Below are positions 17,809 to 53,257 of a stretch of DNA of 64,000 nucleotides, piece by piece. Source of the stretch: an uncultured Pelagibacteraceae bacterium (lineage in GTDB: Bacteria; Pseudomonadota; Alphaproteobacteria; Pelagibacterales; Pelagibacteraceae). Within the stretch, counting starts at the first letter, position 1; each line of letters begins with the position of its first letter. The notes under the pieces were generated by a model, which did not search any database, was not told the DNA's origin, and saw only the letters and a list, made by a program, of their open reading frames with translations. Position numbers and translations under genes: made by a program. The stretch lies in assembly GCA_902600485.1 (NCBI GenBank), contig CACKJD010000005.1, positions 15,905 through 79,904 on the forward strand. The letters are read 5' to 3'.

Positions 17809-17814
17809 ATTCTT

Positions 17815-17850
17815 TGGGGTTTAGGGCACCTAGCAACAGAACGCCCCTAC
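17815..17850 (+). repeat. Structured 3' element, copy A
   Basis: TGGGGTTTAGGGCACCTAGCAACAGAACGCCCCTAC; 24-nt core 23/24 identical to 53227-53250. Confidence 0.85.
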
Positions 17851-18482
17851 TAATCGAAGTTAACTATACTTTCTTTTATTGTTTCTGAAATTACTTTAGC
17901 ACCCTCAAAATTTGGATGAATTCCATCACTTTGATTTAGTTTTGGGTTTAAAGCTACTTTTTTAAGTAAAAAAGGAATTAAATTTAAATCATATTCCTCA
18001 GCTAATTTAGGAAAAATTTCATCAAATTTTTTTTTATATGCCAATCCGTTTGTTGGAGACGCCTTCATGCCAGCTAAAATTATTTCTATATTATTAGACT
18101 TTATAATTTCTATAATTTTTCTTAAATTGCTACTAGTTTGATCTGGATTAATTCTCCTTAGCATGTCATTTGCACCTAATCCTAAAACTATCAAATCAAT
18201 ATCACCACCAGATATATATTCTTCAATTCTATCTAATCCATCTTCTGAAGTATCTCCAGAAACACTTCCATTAATTATTTTAATATTATATCCAGCTTCT
18301 TTTAAATCATTTTCTAGTATCACCGAAAGTACTTGGTTTTCCTTCAAACCATACCCTGACATTAAACTATCTCCAAATAATAGAATTTTATCTACGTTCT
18401 CTAATTTATTGGTTTTACCACAGCTAATCAAAATTAAACCAACCAAGATTATTTTGAAAGATATTAATAATTTATTTCTCAA
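17850..18482 (-). CDS. SGNH/GDSL arylesterase (TesA-like), lipoprotein; TTG start
   Basis: FGDSL, GDTS, LGAND, DGIHP blocks; lipobox LISC. Confidence 0.9.
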   Translation of the reverse strand: MRNKLLISFKIILVGLILISCGKTNKLENVDKILLFGDSLMSGYGLKENQVLSVILENDLKEAGYNIKIINGSVSGDTSEDGLDRIEEYISGGDIDLIVLGLGANDMLRRINPDQTSSNLRKIIEIIKSNNIEIILAGMKASPTNGLAYKKKFDEIFPKLAEEYDLNLIPFLLKKVALNPKLNQSDGIHPNFEGAKVISETIKESIVNFD

Positions 18483-18594
18483 TTTTTGTTTTTCTTTTTT
18501 CTCTTTTGAGTTTCCTTTTTTCTTTAAAGGATAATTTAGGTCTCTTCATGAGACTAGAATCTTTGAATGATTTTCCACTGTATCTTTTTGACAT
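18472..18594 (-). CDS. Small highly basic protein, 40 aa (not in ORF track)
   Basis: Hand translation MSKRYSGKSFKDSSLMKRPKLSFKEKRKLKREKRKTKIEK*; fills the intergenic gap and overlaps the esterase start. Confidence 0.55.
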   Translation of the reverse strand: MSKRYSGKSFKDSSLMKRPKLSFKEKRKLKREKRKTKIEK

Positions 18595-18624
18595 ATATTA
18601 ATTACATCATCTAATTAAAAAACT

Positions 18625-19893
18625 TTAGACTAATAATATTAACTTTAAGTTACTTATAATCAAAAAAACAAAAAAATATGCAAAAATAAGCAAATAGTTT
18701 TTTTTATAGTAAACTTTTTTTAAATCTAGATTAAAGGAGAAAATTGTAAGAAATGCTATAAGAATAAAAGGATCAAAATATTTGTGGTAAATTGTATATT
18801 GTGGATTATTCAAAATAATTAACACCAGGAGTAAAATATTTAAATATTTTTTCGAAATCAATGAACAGATCATTAGAATTGAAAAAAAAGATATAAAATA
18901 AAATAAATAATTATTGTTAAAGAAATAATTTGATAACTTAAAAAATATACCACCACCACTATAAGAATAATTATAATTAAAATTTAATACGCAAATTAAA
19001 AAGATAATTAGAGAAATTAATATATTTTTAATATCCAAAACATTATTTATTTTAATTATTTTCAAAAAAATAAATGGTACTAAGTAAAAGAAAACAATTG
19101 AAAATGTTAATAAAATATCATTAAAAATATTATTAAAAATAATTTTTTCGCTCTCTCCAATTCCTATTGCGGCTGATTTTAATAAAAAATTTACATCGAG
19201 AATAAAAATGTAATAGAAAGCAGGAAAAGCCAACAATAAATTTATAATAACCAAGTACAAAATTTGCCTTGAGAAAAAGCCGTAATATAAAATGAAATTA
19301 ATTAAAAAAAATATTGAAAAAACAGAAAAATTAGGACTTAGATAAGCGCTAAAAGCTAAAACAAAAACATTGTAAATAGCAAATTTAAAATTTTTACTCT
19401 CATCAAATTTTAAAAAGTAATAAATACTTAGAGTAAAAAAAATCAGACCAAATAATCTACTATCAGGCCAAATTGCAAGAGTTCTAAATGTAGGGGATAA
19501 AAAAACTAAAATTGTAAAAAACAAAAGTATTTTTGTATCATGATTATAATATTTAATCCTTAAACATAAAAAAAAAAATATTGGGAGTAATAAACTGATA
19601 TGTAGATGTATTAACCTTATTATTTCGAAATTAAAATTAAGTTTTTTTAGCAAAGATAAACAAATAAGCAAAACGGGAGAATGACGATGATTATATTCAT
19701 TGTAGGATAAAAGGGTTGCACTAAAATTTTCAGAAAAATTAAAAATCAATTCTTTATTTACAGGATAATCAATTTTTGCACCACCAGTGGAGTTTTCACC
19801 TAAAATAAAGCTTAATAATAATGTTAAATAAAGACAAAAAAAGAAAAAATACTCTTTTCTGTGATCACTTTTATTAAAAAAAATTAAATTCAT
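18625..19893 (-). CDS. Polytopic membrane protein, possible GT-C-fold glycosyltransferase
   Basis: About 11-12 TM segments, loop GENSTGGAKIDY...H.HSP, SP.FRTLAIWPDS, KYFDP. Confidence 0.55.
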   Translation of the reverse strand: MNLIFFNKSDHRKEYFFFFCLYLTLLLSFILGENSTGGAKIDYPVNKELIFNFSENFSATLLSYNEYNHRHSPVLLICLSLLKKLNFNFEIIRLIHLHISLLLPIFFFLCLRIKYYNHDTKILLFFTILVFLSPTFRTLAIWPDSRLFGLIFFTLSIYYFLKFDESKNFKFAIYNVFVLAFSAYLSPNFSVFSIFFLINFILYYGFFSRQILYLVIINLLLAFPAFYYIFILDVNFLLKSAAIGIGESEKIIFNNIFNDILLTFSIVFFYLVPFIFLKIIKINNVLDIKNILISLIIFLICVLNFNYNYSYSGGGIFFKLSNYFFNNNYLFYFISFFSILMICSLISKKYLNILLLVLIILNNPQYTIYHKYFDPFILIAFLTIFSFNLDLKKVYYKKNYLLIFAYFFVFLIISNLKLILLV

Positions 19894-19905
19894 AATAAAT
19901 TTATT

Positions 19906-20883
19906 TCAAATTGTGCTGATTAATTTTTTATACAAATTATTTGCACTTAACCAGCCGTTTTCTAATCTTGGACCCCCAAACCAATCAGCGCAAATTCCTA
20001 GTCCTAGTCTTTTATCCCAGTAACTTTTAGTTTTTAAAGGTTTTGAATTAGAAGAGTATTTCCAGCCGTGTATATGCGAAAAATAAACTTTTTTAATTTT
20101 CAATTTAGTTAATTTTTTAAATTTGTTTATTAAAATTCTAGTATGAAATTTTTTTTTATTTCTATAATTATCAGTATGCTTTTTGCCATATTCATAAGTG
20201 CTTTGAAGTACCCATAAATCTTTATTATATCTAAATCTTTTTTTTGAATTTTCATTTGAAACCCAGCCTAAAATATCATCATTAGTAAAAAAACTACTTA
20301 CATTACTATCAGTTTTATTGGTCATCAATAACACAGTCAGACTTGAATTCATTTTTACTTTATTTGTAAATAGTTTTGTTCTTACAAACTTAGATGCTAG
20401 CTTCTTTACTTGTGGAAATGGAGCTGTAATAATTAAGTTCTTTGCATAAGCGCTAGTGTTATTCTTAAATTTAAGAAACCAACAATCTTTTTTTCTTTGT
20501 ATCTCTGACAATTCTGATTGGAATTTACAATTTATACTTTTTAATAAATGTTTACTAATGTCGTTATTACCTCTTACACCTATTAATTTAATGTGTTTTT
20601 TGTCTCTTTTTACTCTTTCATTTAAAAATTCGTGATTGCCTTTCCAATGTTTGATAACTCTTTTTCTAATTAGCTTATTAGTAAAAGATTTAAACTCTTT
20701 AGATCTCGGAGATAGGTATTGAAGACCATGATCAAAACCTATGTTACCTTTAAACCTTTTAAAAGAGCTTCTCCCACCAACTCCTTTAGCTTTTTCAAAA
20801 ACTTTAATTGAGTATTTTTTAACCAGCTTGTTAGATATTGTGGCACCTGATATTCCTGATCCTATTACAGCAAAATCAATCAT
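19906..20883 (-). CDS. FAD/NAD(P)-dependent oxidoreductase, renalase-like
   Basis: VIGSGISG, FEKAKGVGGRSS, FDHG.QY, H.WKYS, ADWF.GPRLE..WLS. Confidence 0.85.
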   Translation of the reverse strand: MIDFAVIGSGISGATISNKLVKKYSIKVFEKAKGVGGRSSFKRFKGNIGFDHGLQYLSPRSKEFKSFTNKLIRKRVIKHWKGNHEFLNERVKRDKKHIKLIGVRGNNDISKHLLKSINCKFQSELSEIQRKKDCWFLKFKNNTSAYAKNLIITAPFPQVKKLASKFVRTKLFTNKVKMNSSLTVLLMTNKTDSNVSSFFTNDDILGWVSNENSKKRFRYNKDLWVLQSTYEYGKKHTDNYRNKKKFHTRILINKFKKLTKLKIKKVYFSHIHGWKYSSNSKPLKTKSYWDKRLGLGICADWFGGPRLENGWLSANNLYKKLISTI

Positions 20884-20895
20884 TAGGACTAATTA

Positions 20896-21825
20896 TTATA
20901 TTCTCGCACCTATTTGTTGAATAACTTTAGAGGACATTTCAGTGCCTTTTTCCAAGCATTCTTTTTGAGATAGACCGTTTACGTGACCATGTAAAAATCC
21001 TGCGGCGAATAAATCTCCAGCACCAGTCAAATCAATTATTTTGAGATTTTTTTGAATACCACATTCTGTAACTTCATCACCATTAATTGAGATTGCACCT
21101 TTTTCACCCCTAGTGATAACCAATAATTTTTTAAGACCTTTTCCAAAATTAATTACCTCATCAAAGTTTTTAGCATCAATTAAAGACATAATTTCTTGTT
21201 CATTAGCAAATGTTATATCTAATTTATTTTTAACTAAATTTAAAAAATGAGGCTTATGTCTATCAACACAAAATTGATCTGATAAAGACATTGCAACTTT
21301 ATTTGCATTAGTTATTGCTTTATCAAAAGCTTTTTTAGGATCTCCTTCATCCCACAGGTATCCTTCCAATAGAATAAGTTCACTTTGTTTTACGGCATTT
21401 GTATCAACATCATTTTCATTTATTTTTCCCGCTGTTCCAAGAAAAGTACACATTGTTCTCTCAGAGTCTGGTGTTACTAAAATTAAACAAGTACCAGTCG
21501 GTAAAGTTTCTTTTTTTTTAGAATAAATATATTGAACATTTTCTTTTCTAAGTCCTTCTTCATACTTTCCGCCTAATTCATCATCACTCACTTTACCTAT
21601 AAAACCAACTTTATTTTTGAGCTGTGAAATACCAACTATAGAATTTGCCACAGATCCGCCTGACACAGTTTTTTCAATTTTTAAGTTAGATAATAGTTGC
21701 TTAAATTCTTTTTCCTCAAAAATGAGCTTCATTGCACTTTTAGTAAGACCATTTTTTTGAATAAAATCATCTTCAACTTTACAAATTACATCTACAATTG
21801 CGTTGCCTATGCCTAATATTTTCAT
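20896..21825 (-). CDS. PfkB-family (adenosine kinase-like) carbohydrate kinase
   Basis: Start reassigned to MKILGIGNAIVDV; GGSVANS, DLTGAGDLFAAGFL. Confidence 0.9.
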   Translation of the reverse strand: MKILGIGNAIVDVICKVEDDFIQKNGLTKSAMKLIFEEKEFKQLLSNLKIEKTVSGGSVANSIVGISQLKNKVGFIGKVSDDELGGKYEEGLRKENVQYIYSKKKETLPTGTCLILVTPDSERTMCTFLGTAGKINENDVDTNAVKQSELILLEGYLWDEGDPKKAFDKAITNANKVAMSLSDQFCVDRHKPHFLNLVKNKLDITFANEQEIMSLIDAKNFDEVINFGKGLKKLLVITRGEKGAISINGDEVTECGIQKNLKIIDLTGAGDLFAAGFLHGHVNGLSQKECLEKGTEMSSKVIQQIGARI

Positions 21826-21826
21826 G

Positions 21827-22495
21827 CTAAGCCTTTTTAGTTTTAATTGGTTTTTTTCTATCAGGATAACAACTCGTACAAATTTTACAAGAAATACCGT
21901 AACAATCACGAGCTTTACAATATTCTCGACCATAAAAAATAATCTGCAAATGAAGTTTGTTCCAATATTTTTTTGGAAATAGACTTTTTAAATCTTCTTC
22001 GGTTTGAACAACATTCTTGCCATTAGTTAAACCCCACCTTTGAGCAAGCCGGTGAATATGAGTGTCTACTGGGAAAGCGGGATGACCAAAACCTTGAGAC
22101 ATGACCACACTTGCAGTTTTGTGACCTACTCCAGGAAGTTCTTCTAATTGTTCAAAGGTGCTTGGAACTTTACTATTATATTTTTCTACTAACGTTTTAG
22201 ACAAGTAATAAATACTTTTTGCTTTTATTCTAAATATTCCTATTCTTCTAATTAACCTTTCAATTTTTTTTCTTCCAAGTTTTACGAAATGAATAGGCTT
22301 ATAATATTTTGGATAAATATCTTTTGTCACATTATTTACATTTACATCTGTACATTGTGCAGACAAAAGAACTGAAATTAATAAAGTAAACACATTTCTA
22401 CTTTCAAGAGGGACATTGATGTGTGGATAAGTCTTATTAAGTATTTTTAATACTATTTTAGCTCTTTCGATTTTATCAGCATTTTTTGAACTCAT
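21827..22495 (-). CDS. nth: Endonuclease III
   Basis: LLSAQCTD, LPGVGHKTA (HhH), VDTHIHR, C-terminal Cys cluster. Confidence 0.95.
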   Translation of the reverse strand: MSSKNADKIERAKIVLKILNKTYPHINVPLESRNVFTLLISVLLSAQCTDVNVNNVTKDIYPKYYKPIHFVKLGRKKIERLIRRIGIFRIKAKSIYYLSKTLVEKYNSKVPSTFEQLEELPGVGHKTASVVMSQGFGHPAFPVDTHIHRLAQRWGLTNGKNVVQTEEDLKSLFPKKYWNKLHLQIIFYGREYCKARDCYGISCKICTSCYPDRKKPIKTKKA

Positions 22496-23265
22496 TTAAA
22501 GTTCAATACATCTCGCATTGAATAAAGGCCTGGTTTCTTCTTCATCAACCACTTTGCTGCGGTTAAAGCACCTTCAGAGTACAAGGCTCTATCAAACGCT
22601 TCATGATTTAAAGTTATAATTTCTTTGCCGCTAGAAAATTTTACCTCATGTTCACCAACTACTTCACCTTTTCTCATCGAATTAAAATTTATTTTTTTTC
22701 CGTAAGGAAAAGATTTTTTATTTAGATATTTTTTTCCAATCAATCTATTTAGATCTTTATTCTTCCCTATAGCTATTCCTTTTCCAAGCATTAAAGCTGT
22801 GCCAGACGGGTGATCTTTTTTATGTTTATGATGAATTTCAAAAACTTTACTCAAAAAATTGCTTCCAAGAGATTTGGAGGTAATTTCTGTTAAATACATT
22901 AATAAATTAATACCTAAGCTCATGTTTCCAGCTTTTAATATTGGAATTTTTTTAGAATATTTTTTTATTGTATTTTCCTGATTTTTAGTAAAACCAGTAG
23001 TACCTATAACAACCCTTTTTTTTAATTTTGAGGCAATTTTAAGGACTTCCAGAGTACATTTAGGTACTGTGAAATCTATAATGACATTAGTTTTTTTGAA
23101 AGAATTAACGTTATTAAATTCGGGTAAAACATTATTTATTTTTCTATTAATTTTAAAGTTTTCTGTGAGCGAAACTAACTTGAAGTTTTTATTTTTATTT
23201 GAAGATTTAATAAGCTGTTGTCCCATTCTTCCCATGCAGCCTGTTATAGTTAAATTTATTTTCAT
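22492..23265 (-). CDS. dapB: 4-hydroxy-tetrahydrodipicolinate reductase
   Basis: Start reassigned to MKINLTITGCMGRMG; IDFT, VIGTTG, EIHH.HKKD.PSGTA. Confidence 0.95.
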   Translation of the reverse strand: MKINLTITGCMGRMGQQLIKSSNKNKNFKLVSLTENFKINRKINNVLPEFNNVNSFKKTNVIIDFTVPKCTLEVLKIASKLKKRVVIGTTGFTKNQENTIKKYSKKIPILKAGNMSLGINLLMYLTEITSKSLGSNFLSKVFEIHHKHKKDHPSGTALMLGKGIAIGKNKDLNRLIGKKYLNKKSFPYGKKINFNSMRKGEVVGEHEVKFSSGKEIITLNHEAFDRALYSEGALTAAKWLMKKKPGLYSMRDVLNFK

Positions 23266-23278
23266 ATAAAGATTTTGT

Positions 23279-23293
23279 TGATAATGATTATCA
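23279..23293. promoter_or_regulatory. Classical Fur box 1
   Basis: Perfect 7-1-7 TGATAAT-G-ATTATCA; 16/19 to GATAATGATAATCATTATC on the minus strand (23280-23298). Confidence 0.7.
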
Positions 23294-23339
23294 TTCATAA
23301 AGATTTTTTTAAAGAGATGTTTTTAATTGGTTTTTTTGT

Positions 23340-23358
23340 GATAATGATAATCAATATT
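23340..23358. promoter_or_regulatory. Classical Fur box 2
   Basis: GATAATGATAATCAATATT, 17/19 to the classical consensus. Confidence 0.7.
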
Positions 23359-23404
23359 ATACGTTATTTCTTGAATAATTTTTTTTATTTCTTATCTTCA
23401 ATTT

Positions 23405-23584
23405 ATGCAAACCCAAAAATTTAGTTGTAAAAAATGTGGATTAACGATTTCATCAGTATGTTCTAAATGCGATAGAGTTGTTGATGTAAAATTGCTTGAT
23501 AGCGGATGTTTAGTTCAAGTAACTAAATGTGGCGACTGTTCAAGTGTTCCAGTTATTAAAGATATCTGCACAGAAAATAATTAA
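23405..23584 (+). CDS. Cys-rich small protein, 59 aa, three CxxC motifs (not in ORF track)
   Basis: Hand translation MQTQKFSCKKCGLTISSVCSKCDRVVDVKLLDSGCLVQVTKCGDCSSVPVIKDICTENN*. Confidence 0.75.
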   Translation: MQTQKFSCKKCGLTISSVCSKCDRVVDVKLLDSGCLVQVTKCGDCSSVPVIKDICTENN

Positions 23585-23591
23585 TTAATAT

Positions 23592-23759
23592 TTATAATAC
23601 AAAATATATAAATATTAATATTATAGCTATCACTATAATCCATATTGAGAAATTCTTAATTAATATCTTCAAGTTATAATTGGTTTGAATAAAACCGGGT
23701 AGTACCAATATTAGAACACCTATTAATGCTATTACCGGGACAATAACTTCAAGACTCAT
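23592..23759 (-). CDS. Small two-TM membrane protein, 55 aa (not in ORF track)
   Basis: Hand translation MSLEVIVPVIALIGVLILVLPGFIQTNYNLKILIKNFSIWIIVIAIILIFIYFVL*; starts 2 nt after the upstream stop. Confidence 0.7.
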   Translation of the reverse strand: MSLEVIVPVIALIGVLILVLPGFIQTNYNLKILIKNFSIWIIVIAIILIFIYFVL

Positions 23760-23761
23760 AA

Positions 23762-24595
23762 CTATTTTACCTTAATACTTTTATGAAATAAAAAAAAGTT
23801 TTGTGATCTATCCTGAAGTTTTTTTACAAAATTTTCAATATTAAAAATTCTTTTTAAATTTTCGTCGAAAAATAAATAATCTAAATCTTTTTTAATATAA
23901 TTTATCAAATTTTCTGGTGTGTATCCAAATTCCTTATATAAATAAGGAGCAAATTCAAAATATATGAAGGGTTTGTGTTTCATAATTGTTGTTTTACCAC
24001 TTTTTAATACATCTAGTTCATATCCATCTACATCAATTTTAATGAGGTCAATATTTTGAAGTTTTGAGCAAATTTGATCAAGTTTTTTTGTTTTTAATGA
24101 TGTTTTCTTTAAAATACCCAAATGAACCTTGTGTTTTTTACCACTATCTAAAAAATTCCATGATGAATGAACTTCCTTGGTTATTTTTTTTTTATTTGAA
24201 ATAAAAATATTTTGAAGGATAATTCTTTTTTTTAAATAAGGATTTAAATTTACATTTTTCTTTAGTTTAGAAAATGCATATACTGTTGGTTCAATAGAAA
24301 TTATTGTAGAATTTTTAAATGTTTTTGCTAATGGAAGGGATACAGAACCTATATTTGCACCAATATCAATTATTGTTTTTTTTTTGTTAATATTCATAAT
24401 TTTATCTATATTTAAAATAGAAGCCTCATTGCTTATACCAAGAAAAATTCCTAGGTCGATGCCTTCTCTAAGATTAATACAATAATTAATATTATTTCTT
24501 TTTATTATCTTGCTTTTGTCTCCAAGAAAGAAAACCAAAAGATTACTTATTAATGATGCACACTTAATTTTCAATTTTGTTGATAAAGATATCAT
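23762..24595 (-). CDS. FkbM-family SAM-dependent methyltransferase
   Basis: IIDIGANIG, IEP, IKIDVDGYELDVL. Confidence 0.88.
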   Translation of the reverse strand: MISLSTKLKIKCASLISNLLVFFLGDKSKIIKRNNINYCINLREGIDLGIFLGISNEASILNIDKIMNINKKKTIIDIGANIGSVSLPLAKTFKNSTIISIEPTVYAFSKLKKNVNLNPYLKKRIILQNIFISNKKKITKEVHSSWNFLDSGKKHKVHLGILKKTSLKTKKLDQICSKLQNIDLIKIDVDGYELDVLKSGKTTIMKHKPFIYFEFAPYLYKEFGYTPENLINYIKKDLDYLFFDENLKRIFNIENFVKKLQDRSQNFFLFHKSIKVK

Positions 24596-24624
24596 TTAAA
24601 AAAATAGTTTTTATTTTATTGGTT

Positions 24625-25749
24625 TCAGCTTTTCCAGAAATTTTTCGCCTTTTGAAAGAACTTTTTGATACTAGGGTTAGATTTTTCATTTTCAATTTCT
24701 CTGAATTTTTCAAGAAGTTCTTTTTGTTCTTTGTTTAGGTTAACTGGTACTTCGGTATTTACTTGAACATATAAATCTCCAATGCCACCTCCTCTCATTA
24801 AAGGCATTCCCTTACCTTTTAATCGAAATTGTTTACCACTTTGTGTACCAGATGGAATTTTAATTTTTGCTTTCCCACCATCTATTGTTGGTATTTCTAT
24901 AGAAGCCCCAAGTGCAGCATCAGCTATTGATATAGGACATTCAAAGAACAAATTTTCTTCGCTTCTTTTAAACAAATCATGAGAATAAACATTTATAAAA
25001 AGATATAAGTCACCGCTCGAAGCTCCTCTTGAGCCAGCCTCACCTTTTCCTGCCAATCTTATTCTTGTGCCATCATCCACACCTTTAGGGATAGTCACAG
25101 ATAATCTTTTTGTGGCTTGTTTTTTTCCTTGTCCACCACAATTACTGCAAGGATTAGTAATTTGTTCACCAGTTCCCGAACATTGGGGACATGTTTGCTG
25201 AACAGTAAAAAAACCCTGGCTAGATCTGACTTGACCATTACCACCACACATAGAGCATGACCCAATGTTTGTACCTGGTTTTGAACCACTTCCGTTACAT
25301 GTTTGACATTTTTCAGATGTTGAAAATTTTATATCTTGTTTTTTACCGCTATAAGCTTCCTCAAGTGACATTGATAAATCATATCTTAAATCTGATCCTC
25401 TAAAATTTGCTTTTCTAGACCTTCTACCACCTCCACCAAAATCTCCAAAAAAATCTTCAAATATATCCGAGAAGTGACTTGAGAAATCAAAATTACTAAA
25501 TCCACCTCTTCCACCACCACCATTTTCAAATGCAGCATGTCCAAAATTATCGTAATTTTGTTTTCGCTCTGCATTTGATAGAACGTGATAAGCCTCTGAT
25601 GCTTCCTTAAATTTTTCCTCAGAAGCCTTGTCTCCTTTATTTTTGTCTGGATGATGTTTAACAGCAAGTTTACGGTAGGCCGCTTTTATTTGATCTGCTG
25701 ATGCTGATTTGTTAACACCTAAGATTTCATAATAATCTCTTTTTGCCAT
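24625..25749 (-). CDS. dnaJ: Chaperone DnaJ
   Basis: J domain HPD, G/F region, four CxxCxGxG repeats. Confidence 0.98.
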   Translation of the reverse strand: MAKRDYYEILGVNKSASADQIKAAYRKLAVKHHPDKNKGDKASEEKFKEASEAYHVLSNAERKQNYDNFGHAAFENGGGGRGGFSNFDFSSHFSDIFEDFFGDFGGGGRRSRKANFRGSDLRYDLSMSLEEAYSGKKQDIKFSTSEKCQTCNGSGSKPGTNIGSCSMCGGNGQVRSSQGFFTVQQTCPQCSGTGEQITNPCSNCGGQGKKQATKRLSVTIPKGVDDGTRIRLAGKGEAGSRGASSGDLYLFINVYSHDLFKRSEENLFFECPISIADAALGASIEIPTIDGGKAKIKIPSGTQSGKQFRLKGKGMPLMRGGGIGDLYVQVNTEVPVNLNKEQKELLEKFREIENEKSNPSIKKFFQKAKNFWKS

Positions 25750-25777
25750 AACTACGAAGACAAATAGTTGTTAGCTC

Positions 25778-27700: not shown

Positions 27701-27720
27701 ATTCTTAAATAATAATGGTC

Positions 27721-27748
27721 ATATAGGTGTTAATTCCTAATCTACAAG
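27721..27748 (-). promoter_or_regulatory. RpoH-type promoter of dnaK
   Basis: Minus strand CTTGTA-N15-CCTATAT. Confidence 0.8.
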
Positions 27749-27760
27749 TTATAACTAATA

Positions 27761-28351: not shown

Positions 28352-28359
28352 AGTTATTT

Positions 28360-28387
28360 ATATGGTATGTAAAATGGATATTTCCAG
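28360..28387 (-). promoter_or_regulatory. RpoH-type promoter of grpE
   Basis: Minus strand CTGGAA-N16-CCATAT, ending 8 nt before the ATG. Confidence 0.6.
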
Positions 28388-30125: not shown

Positions 30126-30156
30126 ATTATATAATATATAATAAACCCTTAATTAA

Positions 30157-33867: not shown

Positions 33868-33917
33868 TGTTATTATTTATGTATACAATTGAGCCAATAT
33901 TAAGACTAATATGATTT

Positions 33918-35447: not shown

Positions 35448-35448
35448 T

Positions 35449-36450: not shown

Positions 36451-36495
36451 GTATTATTTACTTTAAAAATTATATGTAATACTTATATTTATTGT

Positions 36496-39569: not shown

Positions 39570-39578
39570 AATAATATT

Positions 39579-40004: not shown

Positions 40005-40006
40005 TT

Positions 40007-41341: not shown

Positions 41342-41342
41342 T

Positions 41343-42778: not shown

Positions 42779-42779
42779 A

Positions 42780-45460: not shown

Positions 45461-45518
45461 TAATAAGTTGAAAATTTATAAATATTAATTATAAAACCTA
45501 TAACATTGTTGATATATC

Positions 45519-45545
45519 AAAGTGGGCTTCGGCCCATTTTTTTTT
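45519..45545 (+). terminator. Intrinsic terminator immediately upstream of the nusA SD
   Basis: AAAGTGGGC-TTCG-GCCCATTTT, with a 9-T run (45537-45545), then GGAG and ATG at 45558. Confidence 0.8.
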
Positions 45546-45557
45546 GGAGAAAAAAAT

Positions 45558-47102
45558 ATGTTAAACAGACGAGCAGATAAACTTGAACTATTAAGAATTG
45601 CAGAAGCAGTTGCACTAGAAAAGTCTATAGATAAAGAATTAATTATTAATTCTATGGAAACTGGTATTGCCAAAGCCGCTAAGTCAAAATTTGGTAATGA
45701 AAATGAAATTCAAGTTAATATTAATAGAGAAAGTGGCGATATTGAAATTTTTAGAAAATTAATAATTGTCGAAAAACCAGAAAATAACAATACAGAAATA
45801 AGCTTAGAAAGAGCAAAAGCTCTTAATAATGAGAAAAAATTAGGTGAGGAAATATTGCAACCTCTTCCAACATTTGATTTTGGAAGAATTGCTGCACAGA
45901 CTGCTAAACAAGTTATTAGTTTTAGTGTCAGGGAGGCTGAAAAAGAAAGACAGTTTAACGATTTTATTGATAAAAAAGATACAATATTGAGCGGGATAGT
46001 CAAAAGATTAGAGTTTGGAAATGTAATTGTTGATTTAGGAAAAGCAGAAGCAATAATACAAAAAAATGAAATGATCCCAAGAGAAAATATAAAAGCAGGA
46101 GACAGGGTAAAAGCATATTGTTATGATGTTAGAAGAGAGCAAAGAGGACAACAAATATTCTTATCTAGAGCTCATCCAAAATTTATGGAAAAACTATTTA
46201 TTCAAGAAGTTCCAGAAATATACGATGGTTTAATTGAGATAAAATCCTCAGCAAGAGACCCGGGTAGTAGAGCAAAAATTTGTGTTAAAGCTATCGATAC
46301 GTCATTAGATCCAGTTGGAGCCTGCGTTGGAATGAGAGGTAGTAGGGTACAAGCAGTTGTTAATGAATTACAAGGAGAAAAAATTGATATAGTTAATTGG
46401 TCTGAGGATGTAACGGTAGTAGTTTCAAATGCTCTCTCACCTGCTGAAGTATTAAAAGTTAATATTAATCAAGAAGCAAAAAAATTAGATGTTATTCTGA
46501 CTGAGGAAAATTTGAGTAAAGCGATTGGAAGAAGAGGACAAAACGTTAGACTTGCAACAAAACTTATTGATTATGAAATAAATATCATGACTGATAAAGA
46601 AGAGTCGGAAAGAAGACAAGAAGAGTTTAAAGATAGAACAGAGAATTTAATGAAAAATTTAGAGGTGGATGAAACACTTGGTCAGCTTTTAGTAGCCGAG
46701 GGTTTCTCGACAATTGAAATATTAAAAGATAGCAAACTAAATGATCTAGTAAAGATTGAAGGTATTGAAGAGGAGACTGCTAAAGAGCTAATTGAAAGAG
46801 CTATAGAATTTGATAAAAAAAATCAAGAAGAAATTCAAAAAAAGATAAAAGATTTAGGTTTAGAAGCTGATTTAATAAATCATTTGGGATTGACACCTGG
46901 GATGCTTTTAACATTAGGTGAGAAAAAAATATTAACTCTTAACGATTTTGCAGATCTCGCATCTGACGAATTAATCGGTGGTTTTGATATTATCAAAGGT
47001 GAAAAGATCAGGATAAATGGCTATCTCGAAGACTTTGCTTTATCAAAAGCAGAGGCGGACGACCTCATAATGAAAGCCCGAGAAAAAGTTTATAATAATT
47101 AG
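45558..47102 (+). CDS. nusA: Transcription elongation factor NusA
   Basis: Start reassigned to ATG 45558 (GGAG SD); FGRIAAQTAKQV, ARDPGSRAKI, GACVGMRGSRV. Confidence 0.97.
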   Translation: MLNRRADKLELLRIAEAVALEKSIDKELIINSMETGIAKAAKSKFGNENEIQVNINRESGDIEIFRKLIIVEKPENNNTEISLERAKALNNEKKLGEEILQPLPTFDFGRIAAQTAKQVISFSVREAEKERQFNDFIDKKDTILSGIVKRLEFGNVIVDLGKAEAIIQKNEMIPRENIKAGDRVKAYCYDVRREQRGQQIFLSRAHPKFMEKLFIQEVPEIYDGLIEIKSSARDPGSRAKICVKAIDTSLDPVGACVGMRGSRVQAVVNELQGEKIDIVNWSEDVTVVVSNALSPAEVLKVNINQEAKKLDVILTEENLSKAIGRRGQNVRLATKLIDYEINIMTDKEESERRQEEFKDRTENLMKNLEVDETLGQLLVAEGFSTIEILKDSKLNDLVKIEGIEEETAKELIERAIEFDKKNQEEIQKKIKDLGLEADLINHLGLTPGMLLTLGEKKILTLNDFADLASDELIGGFDIIKGEKIRINGYLEDFALSKAEADDLIMKAREKVYNN

Positions 47103-47112
47103 GTGATGGAAA

Positions 47113-49272
47113 ATGGAAAAACAAAAGAAAAAACTAACAATATCAGGAAAGCCAAAAAAAAATTTTGTTTCTCAACAAAATTTTGAAAGTAAAAAAAAAT
47201 TTTCTTTTAACAATCAAAAGTTTTCAAAACCTACAAATAATTTTAAAAAAAATTTTAAAACTAAGCCTATAACTACAAAACTAAGCGATTATGAACGTAG
47301 GAAGTTAGCTGAACAAAAAGCAACGAAAGTAATAAGAGGTGAAAATAATCAAAAAGATAAAGATAATAAGTCAAAATTTAGTACAAAAAAAAGAGAGACT
47401 AAACTAACAGTCTCTAGAGCTTTAAGCGAAGATTTAGAATTTAAATCAAGAAGTCTTGCATCAATTAAACGAGCTAGAGAGAAAGAGCTTAGAATTTCAA
47501 AAAGTAAAATTGGTGATGAAGAAAATGCAAATATTAAGAGAGATATTAATATACCTGAATTTATAACAATTAGAGATCTTGCCAATAGAATGGCTGAGCA
47601 ATCATCAAATATTATTAAACATTTAATGAGTATGGGTGTTGCTGTTACTATCAATCATACAATTGATTCTGACACAGCAGAATATTTAGTAAAAGAATTT
47701 GGCCATAATCCTATTAGAGAAAAAAAAGCAGATGAAATAATAAAAAGTATTATAGATACAAAATCCAAAAATCTAAAAAATCGTCCCCCAATAATTACAG
47801 TTATGGGTCATGTTGATCATGGTAAAACTTCTGTTTTAGATGTTATAAGGAGTACAAACATTGTGTCTGGAGAGTTTGGTGGTATTACGCAACATATAGG
47901 AGCTTATCAAATAACGAAAAGTAATGAAAAAATCACATTTATAGACACACCGGGTCATGCTGCTTTCACTGAAATGAGAGCAAGAGGTTCGAAGTTGACT
48001 GATATAGTTGTATTAGTAGTTGCAGCCAATGATGGAGTGATGCCTCAAACCGTTGAATCAATAAAACATGCAAAAGCAGCAAAAGTCCCAATTGTTGTAG
48101 CAATTAACAAGTGTGATCTTCCAGATGCTGATCCCCAAAAAATTAAAAACCAGCTATTAGAGCATGAATTAATCTCAGAGGACTTATCTGGAGATACAAT
48201 CATGGTCGAAATTTCAACAAAAACTAAAAAAAATATAGATAAATTACTCGAATTGATTTTACTACAAGCAGAACTTTTAGATTTAAAATGTGATTTTAGC
48301 TGTAACTCTAACGGTGTTGTCCTTGAGTCAAAAATAGATATAGGTAGAGGACCGATAGCAAATATTATTGTTACATCCGGTAATCTTAAAAAAGGAGATT
48401 ATTTTGTTTGTGGTACAAAATGGGGAAAAGTCAGAGCAATTATAGATGATACTGGAAAACAAATTAACGAAGCATTACCATCAACACCAGTCGAAGTTTT
48501 AGGTATAAATGGTGCAGCAAAATCTGGAGATGACTTCTTGGTTCTTGACTCAGAAAAAGAGGCTAAGGCTTTATCAGAAGCAAGAATTGAAGAGACCAAA
48601 ACTTCAAAAAATCCTTTAACTATGTTTACACAAGAATCTGCTTTTAAAGATAACAAGTCTGAAGATTTAAATATTATAGTAAAATCAGATGTGCACGGGT
48701 CGTCAGAGGCAATAAAAAGTGCAATTAATCAAATTAAACACGATGAGGTAAAGGTAAAAATAATTTTAGTCGATGTTGGAATGGTAACCGAGACAGATGT
48801 CAATTTAGCTAAGGCATCTAATGCAATTCTAATTGCTTTTAACGTTAAACCTAGTAAGGAAGCAAAAAAAATAGCAGAACAAAATAACGTTAAAATTTCC
48901 TCATTTAATATAATCTATGAATTGATTGATTTTGTCAGAAATCAGATGTCAGGACTATTATCCCCAGATGTAGAAGAAAAGGTAATTGGTTCAGCTGAAA
49001 TTTTAGAAATTTTTAAAGTATCAAAAGTGGGAAAAGTTGCTGGTTCAAAGGTTATTGATGGTGAAATTTCTCAGGACGCTTTAGCTAGAATTATTAGAGA
49101 TGGAGCAATAATTTATAATGGTAAAATAAGCACTATTTTTAGGGAAAAAAACCAAGCCAAGCAAGTGTCAGCTGGACTGGAATGTGGTATATCTTTTAAA
49201 GATTTTAATGACTTTCAAAAAAAAGACATTATAGAGGCTTACAGTTCTACTACAACGGAAAGGGTAATATAA
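47113..49272 (+). CDS. infB: Translation initiation factor IF-2
   Basis: MGHVDHGKTS, GGITQHIGAY, DTPGHAAF. Confidence 0.98.
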   Translation: MEKQKKKLTISGKPKKNFVSQQNFESKKKFSFNNQKFSKPTNNFKKNFKTKPITTKLSDYERRKLAEQKATKVIRGENNQKDKDNKSKFSTKKRETKLTVSRALSEDLEFKSRSLASIKRAREKELRISKSKIGDEENANIKRDINIPEFITIRDLANRMAEQSSNIIKHLMSMGVAVTINHTIDSDTAEYLVKEFGHNPIREKKADEIIKSIIDTKSKNLKNRPPIITVMGHVDHGKTSVLDVIRSTNIVSGEFGGITQHIGAYQITKSNEKITFIDTPGHAAFTEMRARGSKLTDIVVLVVAANDGVMPQTVESIKHAKAAKVPIVVAINKCDLPDADPQKIKNQLLEHELISEDLSGDTIMVEISTKTKKNIDKLLELILLQAELLDLKCDFSCNSNGVVLESKIDIGRGPIANIIVTSGNLKKGDYFVCGTKWGKVRAIIDDTGKQINEALPSTPVEVLGINGAAKSGDDFLVLDSEKEAKALSEARIEETKTSKNPLTMFTQESAFKDNKSEDLNIIVKSDVHGSSEAIKSAINQIKHDEVKVKIILVDVGMVTETDVNLAKASNAILIAFNVKPSKEAKKIAEQNNVKISSFNIIYELIDFVRNQMSGLLSPDVEEKVIGSAEILEIFKVSKVGKVAGSKVIDGEISQDALARIIRDGAIIYNGKISTIFREKNQAKQVSAGLECGISFKDFNDFQKKDIIEAYSSTTTERVI

Positions 49273-49276
49273 TATC

Positions 49277-49642
49277 ATGGCAAACGCAGGTAGACCAGTT
49301 TCTCAAAGACAATTAAGAGTTGGGGAAATGATAAAACAATCATTAAGTATGATATTTCTAAAAGATGAAGCAAAAATACCTGACATTAATTCTAAAGAAA
49401 TCACTGTCACGGAGGTTAGAATGAGCCCAGATTTAAAAACTGCCAAGGTCTTTGTGCTACCACTGGGAGGTAAAAACTCAGAAGAAATTATAGAGAAATT
49501 AAAAGAATTTTCTTTTGTTGTGAGAAAAGTATTGTCCAAAAAAGTCATAATGAAATTTTTACCAAAACTATTTTTTGTGAAAGACGAATCTTTTGACTAT
49601 GCAGAAAAAATTGAAAATTTAATAAAACAAGCTAATAAATAG
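49277..49642 (+). CDS. rbfA: Ribosome-binding factor A
   Basis: SQRQLRVGE, TVTEVRMSPDL..AKV, P.L.F..DESF. Confidence 0.93.
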   Translation: MANAGRPVSQRQLRVGEMIKQSLSMIFLKDEAKIPDINSKEITVTEVRMSPDLKTAKVFVLPLGGKNSEEIIEKLKEFSFVVRKVLSKKVIMKFLPKLFFVKDESFDYAEKIENLIKQANK

Positions 49643-49649
49643 GAAAACT

Positions 49650-49898
49650 ATGAAAAAGAATATTAAGGAATTAAGTTTACACGAAAAAGATACAGGTTCT
49701 TCAGAGGTTCAAATAGGTCTTTTAACAGATAAAATAGAAACTTTATCAAAACATGTGAAGCAGTATAAAAAAGATAAACATTCATCTGTTGGATTATTAA
49801 AAGCAGTTAATAAAAGAAAAAAACTATTGGATTATCTTAAGAAAAATAAAATTGATTCATATAAAAATATATTAACGAAATTAAATTTAAGGAAATAA
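49650..49898 (+). CDS. rpsO: 30S ribosomal protein S15
   Basis: DTGSSEVQI, KKDKHS..GLL..V.KR.KLL.YL. Confidence 0.93.
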   Translation: MKKNIKELSLHEKDTGSSEVQIGLLTDKIETLSKHVKQYKKDKHSSVGLLKAVNKRKKLLDYLKKNKIDSYKNILTKLNLRK

Positions 49899-51971
49899 AT
49901 GTTTAAAATATTCAAAAAAGAAGTTGAAGTTAGTGGAAAGAAAATCAGGTTAGAAACTGGTAAAATTGCAAGGCAAGCAGATGGAGCAATAATTGCTACG
50001 TGTGGAGAAACAGTTGTTCTAGCAACAGTCGTCGGAGCAAAAAAAGTAAATCCTGATGTAGATTATTTTCCATTATCGGTAAATTATCAAGAAAAGTACT
50101 ACGCTGCAGGAAAAATTCCTGGTGGATATTTTAAAAGAGAGGCTAGACCAACAGAAAGCGAAACTCTTATTTCAAGATTGATTGATAGACCTATTAGACC
50201 TTTGTTTCCAGATGAATTTAGAAATGAAGTTCAGTTATTACCTACAGTAATTTCTTATGATAAAGAAAATGAAGCTGATATTTTATCAATTATTGCATCT
50301 TCAGCTGCATTAGCAATATCTGGAATGCCATTTATGGGACCAGTAGGTGCATCAAGAGTAGGTTTTATAGGTGGTAAATATGTTTTAAATCCTACCAAAA
50401 AAGAATTAGAAAATTCAAAACTAGATTTAGTTGTAGCAGGAACCAAGGATGCTGTTTTAATGGTTGAGTCTGAAGCAAAGGGTTTGACAGAACAACAAAT
50501 GCTAGATGCAGTTAAATTTGGTCATGAGGGTTTCGTACCAGTCATAAAAATGATAGAGGAACTTGCAAAAGAATGTAAAAAACCTGATTGGGTTGTTGAA
50601 AAAAAAGATTTATCTGAAGTAAAGAAAAAGTTAGAGAGTGAATTTACAAAAGACCTAAAAAAAGCTTTTTCAATTAAAGATAAACAAGAAAGATCTAATT
50701 TAATATCTGAAGTAACTGAAAAAGCTAAAAAGTTGTACGAAGAAGACGAAAATTATTCAGAACTAGATGTTATGCATGAATTGAAAAATCTTGAAAAAGG
50801 CATTGTGAGAACAGACATACTTAAAAATAAAAATCGTATTGATGGCAGAGGTCTTTCAGATGTAAGACCAATTAAATGTGAAGTTGGAATACTACCAAGA
50901 GTTCATGGATCAGCATTATTCACCAGAGGAGAAACACAAGCAATTGTTACAACAACTCTAGGAACATCTGATGATGAACAAAGAATTGAAAGTTTAGAGG
51001 GTCTACAACGTGAGAGATTCATGCTTCATTATAACTTTCCTCCTTTTTCTGTTGGAGAAACGGGAAGAATAGGAACTGGAAGAAGAGAAATAGGTCACGG
51101 TAAACTAGCATGGAGAGCAATAAATTCATCTTTACCTACAAAAGAAAGTTTTCCATATACATTTAGAATAGTTTCAGAAATCACAGAGTCTAACGGTTCT
51201 TCATCGATGGCAACTGTTTGTGGTTCGTCTTTAGCACTTATGGATGCTGGTGTACCAATTAAAGAGCCAGTTGCTGGTATAGCAATGGGATTAATTAAAG
51301 AGGGAGATGATTTTAGTGTTCTATCAGATATCTTAGGTGATGAGGATCATTTAGGAGACATGGATTTTAAAGTCGCTGGAACTAAAGATGGAATTACTTC
51401 TTTGCAAATGGATATAAAAATAACAGGAATTACATTTGAAATTATGGAGCAAGCTTTAAAACAAGCTAAAGACGGTAGAGTACATATTTTAGATGAAATG
51501 AATAAAGCATTATCTAAATCAAGAGATGATGTGGGAAAACATACTCCTAAAATGGAAAAAATAACTGTTGAAAAGAAAGATATAGCTACAGTTATTGGAA
51601 AAGGTGGTGCAACAATCAGAGAGATTGTTGAAAAATCAGGCGCTAAAGTTGATGTCAATGATGAAGGTGAAGTAACAGTAGCAGCACCAGATGAAGACTC
51701 AAGAAATAAAGCAATGCAAATGATTAAAGATTTAACAGCTAAAGCTGAACTTAACAAAATTTATAACGGTAAAGTTATGAAAATTATGGAGTTTGGTGCA
51801 TTTGTAAATTTTTTGGGAAAACAAGATGGCCTAGTCCATATTTCGGAACTTGCAGATAAAAGAGTGGCTAAAGTAACAGATGTTGTAAAAGAAGGAGATG
51901 AAGTAAAAGTAAAAGTCATAGGTTTTGATAGAGGTAAAGTTAAACTATCAATTAAACAAGCCACCGTATAA
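49899..51971 (+). CDS. pnp: Polynucleotide phosphorylase
   Basis: [40 protein letters not shown] and S1 domains. Confidence 0.98.
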
Positions 51972-51999
51972 ACATAGATAATTATCAGAATAAATATAT

Positions 52000-52680
52000 A
52001 TGAAGACTCTAATGGAATTAAACTTTAGAGAAAAAATATGGTGTCAATTATTCAAAATTAAATTTTTTAGAGAGAAAGTTTTTTATAAGTTAAGTAGATA
52101 CAAAAAAAAACTTCAAACTTTAGATAAATTAAATTTAAACCCTAAATCTGTTGTATTAGATATTGGTGGAAATAATGGTGTAGTTTCAAAATATATTTAT
52201 GATAAATATCGTTGCAATATTGAAATTTATGAGCCTAATCCTTATTGTGTACTAATTCTTAAAGAAATTTTTTTTTATTATCCAAAAGTAAAAGTATATG
52301 AAGCTGCAATCTCAAATAAAAAAAGTGTTAAAAAATTATATTATCATAAACTTGAGACAAATTTAAAAAATATGTCCCTATCTGAAAGTTCAACATTAGA
52401 AAGTATAAAAAGTAATATATCTAAAAAAAAGTTTAAAAAAGTTAAAACTGAAAATATAAAATCAATTTTGAACAAGTATAAAAAAATAAACTTTCTTAAA
52501 ATTGACATAGAGGGTCATGAATATAAAATTTTACCTGAGATAATTAAAAATTTAAAAAAAATTGATATTATTTTTTGTGAGATGCATGGAAGCAAGCATC
52601 GAAAAGAGTTTCAAAACCAATATAAATTATGGAAAAAGAAAATAAAAAAAATTCAAAATAAAAAGTTTTTTGAATGGTAG
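52000..52680 (+). CDS. FkbM-family methyltransferase
   Basis: LDIGGNNG, YEPNP, LKIDIEGHEY. Confidence 0.85.
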   Translation: MKTLMELNFREKIWCQLFKIKFFREKVFYKLSRYKKKLQTLDKLNLNPKSVVLDIGGNNGVVSKYIYDKYRCNIEIYEPNPYCVLILKEIFFYYPKVKVYEAAISNKKSVKKLYYHKLETNLKNMSLSESSTLESIKSNISKKKFKKVKTENIKSILNKYKKINFLKIDIEGHEYKILPEIIKNLKKIDIIFCEMHGSKHRKEFQNQYKLWKKKIKKIQNKKFFEW

Positions 52681-52714
52681 TAATAAACGAAAATCCACCC
52701 CTACAATTTAATTA

Positions 52715-52867
52715 ATGTTCTCATTATCAAAATTAAAAAATATTTTTAAAAAAAACAAATATGTCAAATATTTAGCTATTGGAGGTTTTGCTTTCTTTTT
52801 TATAAAGGGTCTTATTTGGTTAGCAGTCATATTTTCTGTTGGTTTTAGCGCTTTTAACTTCATTTAA
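52715..52867 (+). CDS. Small single-TM membrane protein, 50 aa (not in ORF track)
   Basis: Hand translation MFSLSKLKNIFKKNKYVKYLAIGGFAFFFIKGLIWLAVIFSVGFSAFNFI*. Confidence 0.65.
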   Translation: MFSLSKLKNIFKKNKYVKYLAIGGFAFFFIKGLIWLAVIFSVGFSAFNFI

Positions 52868-52904
52868 ATTTCTGTTCATTTTGCGTTTGATATTCCTTAA
52901 GTAG

Positions 52905-52932
52905 TTGCAATAACTTTTTAAAAATGTAAGCT
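52905..52932 (+). promoter_or_regulatory. Putative sigma70 promoter of the pseudoknot-leader transcript
   Basis: TTGCAA-N16-TAAGCT; predicted start site ~52938-52940, at the first base of the pseudoknot. Confidence 0.55.
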
Positions 52933-52939
52933 TTCTTTA

Positions 52940-52990
52940 ACCATATCTCATGGTGATAAAGAGACCGATATCGCATCGGTTAAAAGCGAG
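52940..52990 (+). ncRNA. Candidate structured 5' leader: two tandem H-type pseudoknots
   Basis: ACCAT-A-TCTC-ATGGT-GATAAA-GAGA then ACCGAT-A-TCGC-ATCGGT-TAAAA-GCGA; compensatory changes in both stems. Confidence 0.65.
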
Positions 52991-53017
52991 TTTTGGAAAA
53001 ACTAACAAGGAGTGTGT

Positions 53018-53209
53018 ATGAAAAGAATGCACAGAGTTCTTAATTCGTTTAGCCGAGGCTCAAAGATCGCTAGGCTAAATCAATTAATGTTCCGAAATTT
53101 AAAATCTGTTGAAGCTAATGGCAATGGCACAAGCGGATACGTTATTAAATCTGGAAAAAACTCTGGAAAAGTTGTTGGGCATTTAAAAAAAGAGCCTAAA
53201 AACATTTAA
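53018..53209 (+). CDS. Small basic hypothetical protein, 63 aa
   Basis: AAGGAG SD then ATG 53018; motif EANGNGTSGYVIKSG.NSGKV..H. Confidence 0.85.
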   Translation: MKRMHRVLNSFSRGSKIARLNQLMFRNLKSVEANGNGTSGYVIKSGKNSGKVVGHLKKEPKNI

Positions 53210-53216
53210 TTAAGAT

Positions 53217-53253
53217 TGGGGTATGGGGGCACCTGGCAACAGAACGCCCCATC
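53217..53253 (+). repeat. Structured 3' element, copy B
   Basis: TGGGGTATGGGGGCACCTGGCAACAGAACGCCCCATC; near-identical to 17815-17850. Confidence 0.85.
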
Positions 53254-53257
53254 AAAA

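Follow-up and report, generated by a model that had tools for sequence, protein, structure and literature searches.

Copies of the tmRNA gene 3′ end as probable junction sites of mobile cassettes in SAR11 genomes

A 64,000-nt stretch of the genome of an uncultured Pelagibacteraceae bacterium (here the window) contains two copies of a short G+C-rich element that corresponds to the extreme 3′ end of ssrA, the gene for the two-piece transfer-messenger RNA (tmRNA). Based on a comparison with ~300 related loci (designated by L numbers), the elements are probably att-type copies or scars of the ssrA 3′ end that mark the junctions of mobile cassettes, i.e., DNA recombination sites. We favor this interpretation because of the identity with the ssrA end, the direct-repeat arrays, the reassortment of flanks at the core edge, the existence of empty and filled sites, and the conserved arms of the cassettes. 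An earlier note on the same DNA had proposed that a tmRNA 3′ module has been reused as an mRNA 3′ end. The identity with the tmRNA end was confirmed, but reuse as RNA did not hold up as the main explanation, given the absence of covariation, the loss of pairing partners, and the antisense orientation of many of the associated genes.

Results

Two copies of the ssrA 3′ end

Copy 1 lies on the + strand at positions 17815-17847 (TGGGGTTTAGGGCACCTAGCAACAGAACGCCCC; core, 17825-17847) and copy 2, also on the + strand, at 53217-53250 (TGGGGTATGGGGGCACCTGGCAACAGAACGCCCC; core, 53228-53250), in DNA with a mean G+C content of ~29%. The window has exactly two occurrences of the 23-nt core, GGCACCTRGCAACAGAACGCCCC, versus 0 in 100 shuffles, and the element is the window's sole repeat that is not of low complexity (repeat family D15). 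No further full or partial copies were found in the window with 3 mismatches allowed, by nhmmer, or with 13- to 14-nt 3′ sub-patterns. The initial observation of two GC-rich + strand copies 35 kb apart in AT-rich DNA was accordingly reproduced, as was the location of each within 10 nt of the stop of a small + strand gene: copy 1 begins 6 nt beyond the stop of a 68-aa + strand open reading frame (ORF; 17602-17808), and copy 2 starts 7 nt after that of a 63/65-aa + strand ORF (53012/53018-53209). Both copies are also closely followed on their 3′ side, a point absent from the earlier note, by the stops of convergent − strand genes at distances of 2 nt (17850-18482) and 7 nt (53258-53635). The reported lack of a U-tract applies to copy 1; copy 2 does have a T-run, albeit 15 nt downstream.

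In E-value mode, both copies aligned with the last ~37 positions only of the Rfam tmRNA model RF01849 (E = 0.004 for copy 1 and 5e-5 for copy 2), the remaining ~320 model positions being unmatched. The local scores were 15.9 and 22.2 bits, far below the gathering score of 50. The closest relative of the window is strain AAA795-F16 (~91% nucleotide identity over 14.6-17.8 kb), whose ssrA (L060), included as a positive control, scored 227 bits and has the 3′ end CGGGGUUUGGGGCACCUGGCAACAGAACGCCCC. The element of this strain aligned to model positions 319-355, a segment left unstructured by Rfam; the core corresponds to positions ~330-352, and the ssrA gene ends 3 nt further. Copy 1 differs from the ssrA of AAA795-F16 by A for G at two positions, and the core of copy 2 is identical to the SAR11 ssrA core. 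The conserved 3′-terminal tmRNA sequence GGGGUU..GG.CACCUGGCAACAGAA..CC is present in the window copies, and the flanks diverge straight after GCCCC(T), the block of identity stopping sharply at the extreme 3′ end of ssrA. Together, the alignment to the tail of RF01849 and the L060 ssrA end substantiate the suspected resemblance to the 3′ end of a two-piece tmRNA.

A scan with one genome per species detected the core in at least 120 stretches, nearly all of them Pelagibacteraceae among the matches listed. A permuted tmRNA gene was identified by ARAGORN in 99 of 129 fetched loci, with the element as the extreme 3′ end of ssrA; the coding piece has at its end, in this order, the tag (ANESYALAA* and variants), a TTAATTAA hairpin, and ACGGGGTYYGGGGCACCTGGCAACAGAACGCCCC. 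Neither the Rfam gathering scan nor ARAGORN found a tmRNA or tRNA gene in the window; hence there is no acceptor piece and no tRNA-like domain at either copy, as had been surmised. A tag-peptide frame (ANxxxALAA*) is likewise lacking upstream of both copies, where there are instead conserved protein-coding ORFs of 68 and 63 aa, and thyX, the conserved left neighbor of ssrA in relatives, is not in the window either. The window copies are best described as secondary sites or relocated units.

The core is also carried by phages. Two-piece tmRNA genes encoded on IMG/VR phage contigs (L121-L129) have at their end the same 23-nt core as the host ssrA; eight of the nine have the tag ADENLALAA, extended in one of these eight, and L124 is without an ARAGORN call. 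In principle, phage tmRNA genes share the host's recombination core.

Direct-repeat arrays and dispersed copies

Extra core copies were found downstream of ssrA in 15 of the 51 loci with at least 3 kb of downstream sequence, at 1 to 4 per locus. All 23 are in the same orientation as ssrA and 0 in the opposite one, with a spacing of 205 to 2776 nt (median, 709). In L020, L093, L107, and L255, they form arrays of three to six copies in which an element, one to five genes, and another element follow each other repeatedly. The array genes are on either strand, mostly antisense to the element, and the cargo is unrelated from one cassette to the next, including HNH and Mrr nucleases, an EEP-family enzyme, a helicase-like 887-aa protein, TerB-like and MazG-like proteins, lipoproteins, and small membrane proteins. 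Away from ssrA, copies are located directly after pnp (L006, L059, L090, L110), after rnhA (L043, L065, L100, L115), and after small ORFs, among them orthologues of both window ORFs. Allowing up to 4 mismatches, the dispersed set comprises 85 distinct non-ssrA copies.

In L255 (positions 150-3735), ssrA is followed by five more element copies within 3.3 kb, and one of the cassettes holds a gene homologous to the ABM monooxygenase gene at 17189-17491 of the window. In turn, msrB, at 16321-16797 in the window, is found between pnp and fabI in L090. Because of these two occurrences, the window region at ~16.3-18.6 kb seems to be a patchwork of former cassettes.

Reassorting flanks and moving units

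Clustering of the flanking sequences revealed reassortment of left with right flanks across the element: a right flank that follows ssrA in one genome is found after pnp, after rnhA, or after a cassette end in another. The 68-aa ORF plus element (unit 1; 17593-17849, + strand) recurs at no fewer than four kinds of site. Close relatives have it at the same locus as the window; in L007 it comes immediately downstream of ssrA, in L080/L157 it shares the pnp-fabI spacer with the lipase gene, and in L054/L105/L137-139 it follows unit 2 directly. It is inverted in L241 and L258. Unit 2, comprising a leader, the 63-aa ORF, and the element (52940-53250, + strand), was found at three kinds of site; for instance, it is the immediate downstream neighbor of ssrA in L103 and forms a tandem with unit 1 in L137-139. 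Its leader contains a palindrome, ACCGATGCGATATCGGT, at window positions 52964-52980, and the metagenome contig graph branches nearby (52973). Among 15 [68-aa ORF + element] units there are at least 11 different right flanks, all of which begin at the base after the core.

At both window copies, variable DNA starts at the 3′ edge of the element. Next to copy 1 this is the segment 17850-18490 (− strand) with a GDSL lipase gene (17850-18482), and the close relatives L015, L130, and L133 lack exactly 17850-18490. Next to copy 2 it is the segment 53251-53682 (− strand), with a gene for a 125-aa lipoprotein (53258-53635). Pairs of empty and filled sites were found in relatives. In L178, the empty site consists of pnp, 18 nt, the element, and fabI, with a spacer of 72 nt; in the filled site, L179, this layout is extended by a 165-nt insert with a partial copy, GGGGGAAACAGAACGCCCC, at its end, after which comes the right flank of L178. 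Similarly, copy 1 of the window reads element|tactaatcgaag...lipase (tactaatc flank), and L132 has the element, a 1.04-kb insert with a gene for an M23-like peptidase, and then ...AATGCCGGGCAACAGAACGCCCC|tactaatcaaaa...lipase, with a partial copy, ...CCGGGCAACAGAACGCCCC, before the tactaatc flank. A tiny insert with a partial element copy is present in L230. The repeats common to both sides of the inserts in filled sites are 13 to 18 nt long, which is why we place the putative crossover inside GGCAACAGAACGCCCC. These loci thus display what is expected of att repeats: a block of identity at the extreme 3′ end of ssrA, direct orientation bounding variable DNA (in the relatives), and empty versus filled sites.

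Directly 3′ of the element in several genomes is a very basic 40-aa ORF, MSKRYSGKSFKDSSLMKRPKLSFKEKRKLKREKRKTKIEK (window 18472-18594, − strand; also L201 and L130/L133/L135). It sits at two loci, the copy 1 locus (locus A) and the pnp-fabI spacer (L201), and has no family match.

Junctions in natural populations

Contigs from natural populations break at the same bases. Unit 2 contigs from four DNA metagenomes stop precisely at position 53250, where the contig graph branches either into the lipoprotein gene, at lower depth, or through a joint 53250→53683 to fabI with six different 6-nt linkers; branching occurs at both ends of unit 2. At copy 1, the populations include a joint 17848→18483 that skips the lipase gene, as well as several different loose ends at 17846-17849. 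RNA contigs carry the same joints as the DNA metagenomes. With isolates, single-cell genomes, metagenome-assembled genomes, and independent metagenomes all in agreement, it is unlikely that the junctions are assembly artefacts.

The pnp-fabI spacer as a miniature flexible island

Copy 2 is in the flexible spacer (51972-53682) between the convergent core genes pnp (49899-51971) and fabI (53683-54468), a miniature flexible island. In 76 relatives (L148-L227), the length of this spacer ranges from 51 to 3202 nt, with many alternative contents. The FkbM methyltransferase insert of the window (52000-52680) is rare in the sampled populations, with a depth of ~4-8 versus 20-115 for unit 2. The content of minimal spacers is a canonical terminator, a T-arm fragment of a tRNA, or nothing but the element. 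Because only 8 of the 76 spacers carry the element, we discarded the idea that it is responsible for all of the pnp-fabI variability.

One of the minimal spacers (L212:3030-3125) has a tRNA 3′ fragment (GCAGGTTCGAATCCTGC T-arm plus acceptor strand) in place of the element or terminator. Pieces of tRNA gene ends may therefore be dispersed like the tmRNA-end element; no tRNA T-arm fragments were found in the window.

Conserved arms of the cassettes

To the left of many copies there is a noncoding arm of ~150 nt that can be aligned across cassettes with different cargo (L020, L037, L039, L048, L087, L107, L111, and others). Its layout is two direct 7- to 9-nt repeats ~20 nt apart, a T-run, a palindrome, GTTA(C/A)ARGTT, and the core. 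The repeated word differs between arm families, being GGACTCAC, GATCACA, GTACGGGAT, or TGGCACA; another arm family ends in AAGTGAGCAAATATGCTAYTTTCTAATCT-AATRCCGGGCAACAGAACGCCCC. Directly after several copies there is also a conserved left end (TGCGTATTGGCGTTAACAC...). To judge from their sequence, the arms resemble attP arms, with repeats that look like protein-binding sites, and by analogy the combination of conserved ends and variable cargo looks like the layout of integrative elements and their integrase-less derivatives. The arms immediately precede the start codons of − strand cassette genes and could therefore have an operator/promoter function in addition to that of recombinase arm sites.

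RNA folding and transcript ends

The core was 94% identical among 17 distinct element-carrying [68-aa ORF + element] units, in which identity of the ORF was 84% at codon positions 1 and 2 and 61% at position 3. Such a degree of conservation would mean that the core is either constrained or continually renewed. It also upholds the claim of a conserved internal sequence. As to the hairpin or H-type pseudoknot proposed alongside it, both window copies keep both stems, but pairing has often been lost in the dispersed copies, in which conservation concerns the primary sequence, stretching from GGCACC to GCCCC(T). Pseudoknot stem S1 can form in 36 of the 85 dispersed copies versus 85 of the 90 ssrA copies, against 4/85 in a shifted control. 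The 5-bp hairpin is complete in 50/85 dispersed copies and reduced to 3 bp or fewer in 20/85. The two middle pairs of S1 form in 38/82 (46%) and 49/82 (60%) dispersed sequences, and the two outer pairs of the hairpin are broken in 30/82 and 18/82. In an 84-sequence alignment, 77.0% of the cells were paired versus 75.9% in shuffles, and the covariation score was 0.077, below the slid controls (0.089-0.124). A double change in S1 was observed in L007, where GGGU/ACCU has become CGGU/GCCG and the pseudoknot stem is kept. Across copies, however, the maintained pairs and compensatory changes of a conserved pseudoknot were not found.

Folding energies were ordinary (z = −0.12 for copy 1 and −0.65 for copy 2), and the terminator scan flagged neither element. 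At least six T's in the 8 nt that follow were found for 8/85 dispersed and 14/90 ssrA copies (9-16%). The stable G+C-rich stem, short loop, and immediate U-tract of an intrinsic terminator were not observed. Across copy 1, the depth of the RNA contigs falls from ~220 to ~3, i.e., about 50-fold, which is merely suggestive of a transcript end, the Logan contigs being unstranded and the downstream gene convergent. One RNA contig is continuous through copy 2.

Elsewhere, an ordinary hairpin takes the place of the element. In the complete genome of nBUS_29 (L136:3205-3275) and in metagenome variants with loose ends at window position 17812, the 68-aa ORF is followed by a perfect hairpin of 9 to 12 bp, AGCGAGATTTCAT...ATGAATCTCGCT or GGGGTGTTTAAAAAAACACCCC, and no element.

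Small proteins encoded by the units

The 68-aa protein that travels with copy 1 (17602-17808, + strand) is a small secreted protein with a signal peptide and a CPMM motif. It has an invariant GSCPMM motif and several His residues and belongs to no Pfam or PHROG family. The difference in identity between codon positions 1 and 2 (84%) and position 3 (61%) makes the ORF appear to be under purifying selection. In one metatranscriptome, the contig depth of its gene was ~220 versus ~12 for the neighboring genes. It may be a small periplasmic metal-binding protein. The 63-aa protein that travels with copy 2 (53018-53209, + strand; 65 aa if started from the GTG at 53012) is basic and matches phrog_32989 (E = 1e-9). 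Weak homologues (40-50% identity) are encoded by small hypothetical genes of pelagiphages HTVC100P and HTVC168P (L308:3989-4153 and L309:3965-4162); no element copy is annotated at these phage loci.

Discussion

A model for the movement of ssrA-end cassettes

According to the scenario that we consider probable, DNA would insert site-specifically at the 3′ end of SAR11 ssrA, and each insertion would leave a full or partial direct repeat of the ssrA end, giving arrays of small cassettes downstream. The same core would occur at a small number of secondary sites, including those downstream of pnp, rnhA, and the two small window ORFs, again at a junction between conserved and variable DNA, with a small ORF plus the element as a unit that moves among element-bearing sites. 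The GDSL lipase and lipoprotein genes would be strain-variable inserts beginning at the last base of the core. The exchange would be catalyzed by a site-specific recombinase acting in trans, with crossover inside the segment delimited above. The G+C-rich stem may also serve the flanking convergent transcripts as a 3′-end structure, a possible by-product role. A more elaborate proposal, which we put forward only tentatively, is that SAR11 bacteria possess a cassette platform without an integrase of its own, served by a recombinase in trans, whose site is the last ~23 nt of ssrA, with ssrA as the primary landing site, a few secondary sites in the core genome, and the sense copies doubling as portable mRNA 3′ ends of small, highly expressed cassette genes, given that this site is at the same time the terminal structure of the tmRNA coding piece.

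Several observations weigh against junctions made by site-specific recombination. There is no ssrA in the window, and the copies are not adjacent to it as an insertion site would require but lie 35 kb apart among core genes. Neither of the inserts that follow the window copies on the right is closed by a second repeat, there is no element to the left of unit 2, and no degenerate second copies were found to the left of the units or at the far ends of the inserts. Only 8 of the 76 pnp-fabI spacers carry the element, though nearly all vary in length. The conservation of the core above that of coding positions needs frequent recombination or else direct selection, which could act on RNA. No cognate integrase was found in or next to the inserts: a crude screen of 1379 ORFs (≥150 aa) of the fetched loci yielded no tyrosine-recombinase catalytic motif, and Pfam and PHROGs scans of selected cassette and cassette-end proteins gave no recombinase. 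As to a phage attP, scans of IMG/VR with the exact 23-mer and 16-mer returned only full phage tmRNA genes or unrelated high-GC contigs, and a cassette arm plus core, used as a blastn query against 50,697 phage records, had no match. The recombinase could be supplied in trans. SAR11 islands are reported to be nearly devoid of integrases, and homologous recombination is favored for cassette exchange in the portions of a previous study considered here (PMC11796062).

Alternative explanations

An RNA module, in which sense copies end the mRNAs of small ORFs and act as terminators, barriers to 3′→5′ exonucleases, or tags for protein binding, with selection on RNA keeping the sequence, strikes us as unlikely, yet it accounts for a number of the data. 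Both stems are kept in the window copies, 6 to 7 nt after the stops of sense ORFs; the core is more conserved than codon positions 1 and 2; S1 can form well above the shifted control in the dispersed copies; L007 has a compensatory change; and the element occupies a position equivalent to that of an ordinary hairpin (L136 and the metagenome variants) or a terminator (minimal pnp-fabI spacers). Moreover, with hypervariable DNA after ssrA, the 3′ end of tmRNA would have to be set from within the gene, and the RNA contig depth does drop across copy 1. On the other hand, pairing in dispersed copies is not conserved and gives no covariation signal, and the identity block begins sharply at GGCACC even in copies that lack both 5′ strands. 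Stability is ordinary, with no terminator-like signature and few U-tracts, and the contig evidence is unstranded, with a convergent gene downstream of copy 1 and an RNA contig running through copy 2. An RNA function would also leave unexplained the partial direct repeats that flank inserts, and the array cassette genes are mostly antisense to the element.

These repeats could instead be passive scars of short-homology recombination, i.e., of RecA-dependent exchange at the 23-34-bp identity plus flanking core genes, with no dedicated recombinase involved. The SAR11 clade does show very high recombination, and in the portions of the literature considered here the exchange of one or two genes at fixed hot spots is explained by homologous recombination. 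Most variable pnp-fabI spacers are without the element, and the motif screen found no recombinase. Nevertheless, we judge this explanation improbable. RecA usually needs roughly 25 bp of homology in Escherichia coli, and the filled-site repeats, at 13-18 nt, are below that length. Junctions are precise to the base at the core end in many independent lineages, the arms have paired direct repeats that look like protein-binding sites, and the strict 23:0 orientation is what integrative recombination would be expected to produce. It is very improbable that the copies are what remains of a second tmRNA gene (a remnant or pseudogene) or a G+C-rich repeat that arose by chance. Weak matches to the Rfam alpha_tmRNA model do exist at both sites, but they involve only the last ~37 model positions, the ORF upstream is conserved and protein coding, and there is neither acceptor piece nor tag. 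Chance is contradicted by the 0 occurrences in shuffles and by the conservation of the units in many genomes.

Significance

SAR11 is the most abundant bacterial clade of the ocean. Its flexible genes are spread over numerous small hot spots, yet hardly any mobile elements or integrases have been described from it, so that the movement of the cassettes calls for an explanation. The core provides a searchable handle with which to map cassette boundaries in genomes and metagenomes, seek excised circles, and hunt for the recombinase. If the elements are indeed DNA junctions, an attractive but less well supported RNA interpretation is corrected, and weak partial matches to tmRNA models in SAR11 would be copies of a recombination site, not RNA genes.

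No earlier description of the dispersed ssrA-end element was found in the parts of the literature on SAR11 islands and RNA motifs that were covered. The SAR11 candidate RNA motifs of Meyer et al. (2009) were considered as a prior description and dismissed, the text and the bablM alignment corresponding to a different sequence.

Comparison with known systems

The SAR11 genomic islands described previously are the closest in organism. In the portions of that report considered here, additive flexible islands are located near tRNA and tmRNA genes, one of them being tmRNA linked, with partial tRNA repeats in four (PMC11796062). The organism group and the hot-spot logic are the same as in our data; the differences are the tmRNA-end repeats, the dispersal to other loci, and the base-precise junctions, none of which is mentioned in those portions.

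With its imperfect, G+C-rich palindrome, located between convergent genes of an A+T-rich genome at a place held elsewhere by ordinary terminator hairpins, the element is reminiscent of terminators and repetitive extragenic palindromic (REP) sequences. The element differs from these in having a stem of only 5 bp, a 13-nt loop, usually no U-tract, and few copies per genome, and in that the loop is conserved and the stem is not. With integrons, the SAR11 arrays have in common small, mostly single-gene cassettes and a site located directly after the ORF stop (e.g., L255). However, an integron-type integrase next to ssrA was rejected, the neighbor being thyX, so that no intI is found beside the array; neither intI with attI nor the R″/L″-L′/R′ architecture of attC was recognized. 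The site is a gene end, not an extended, imperfect attC-like palindrome, and the cassettes are in both orientations.

Islands specific for ssrA are reportedly a general case, treated by Williams in 2002 (Nucleic Acids Res 30:866). The closest described parallel is Dehalococcoides, where as many as 11 copies of a 19- to 20-bp repeat of the ssrA 3′ end lie downstream of the gene and delimit tandem islands; the ~150 bp surrounding the repeats also show similarity (PMC2764846). The Dehalococcoides islands are kilobases long, with integrase and other recombination genes next to ssrA (PMC2764846). Both systems have direct repeats of the ssrA end that bound tandem strain-specific inserts in a streamlined genome. 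They differ in that the SAR11 cassettes measure 0.2-2.8 kb, no integrase was seen in our screens, and copies of the SAR11 element are also present at secondary sites far from ssrA.

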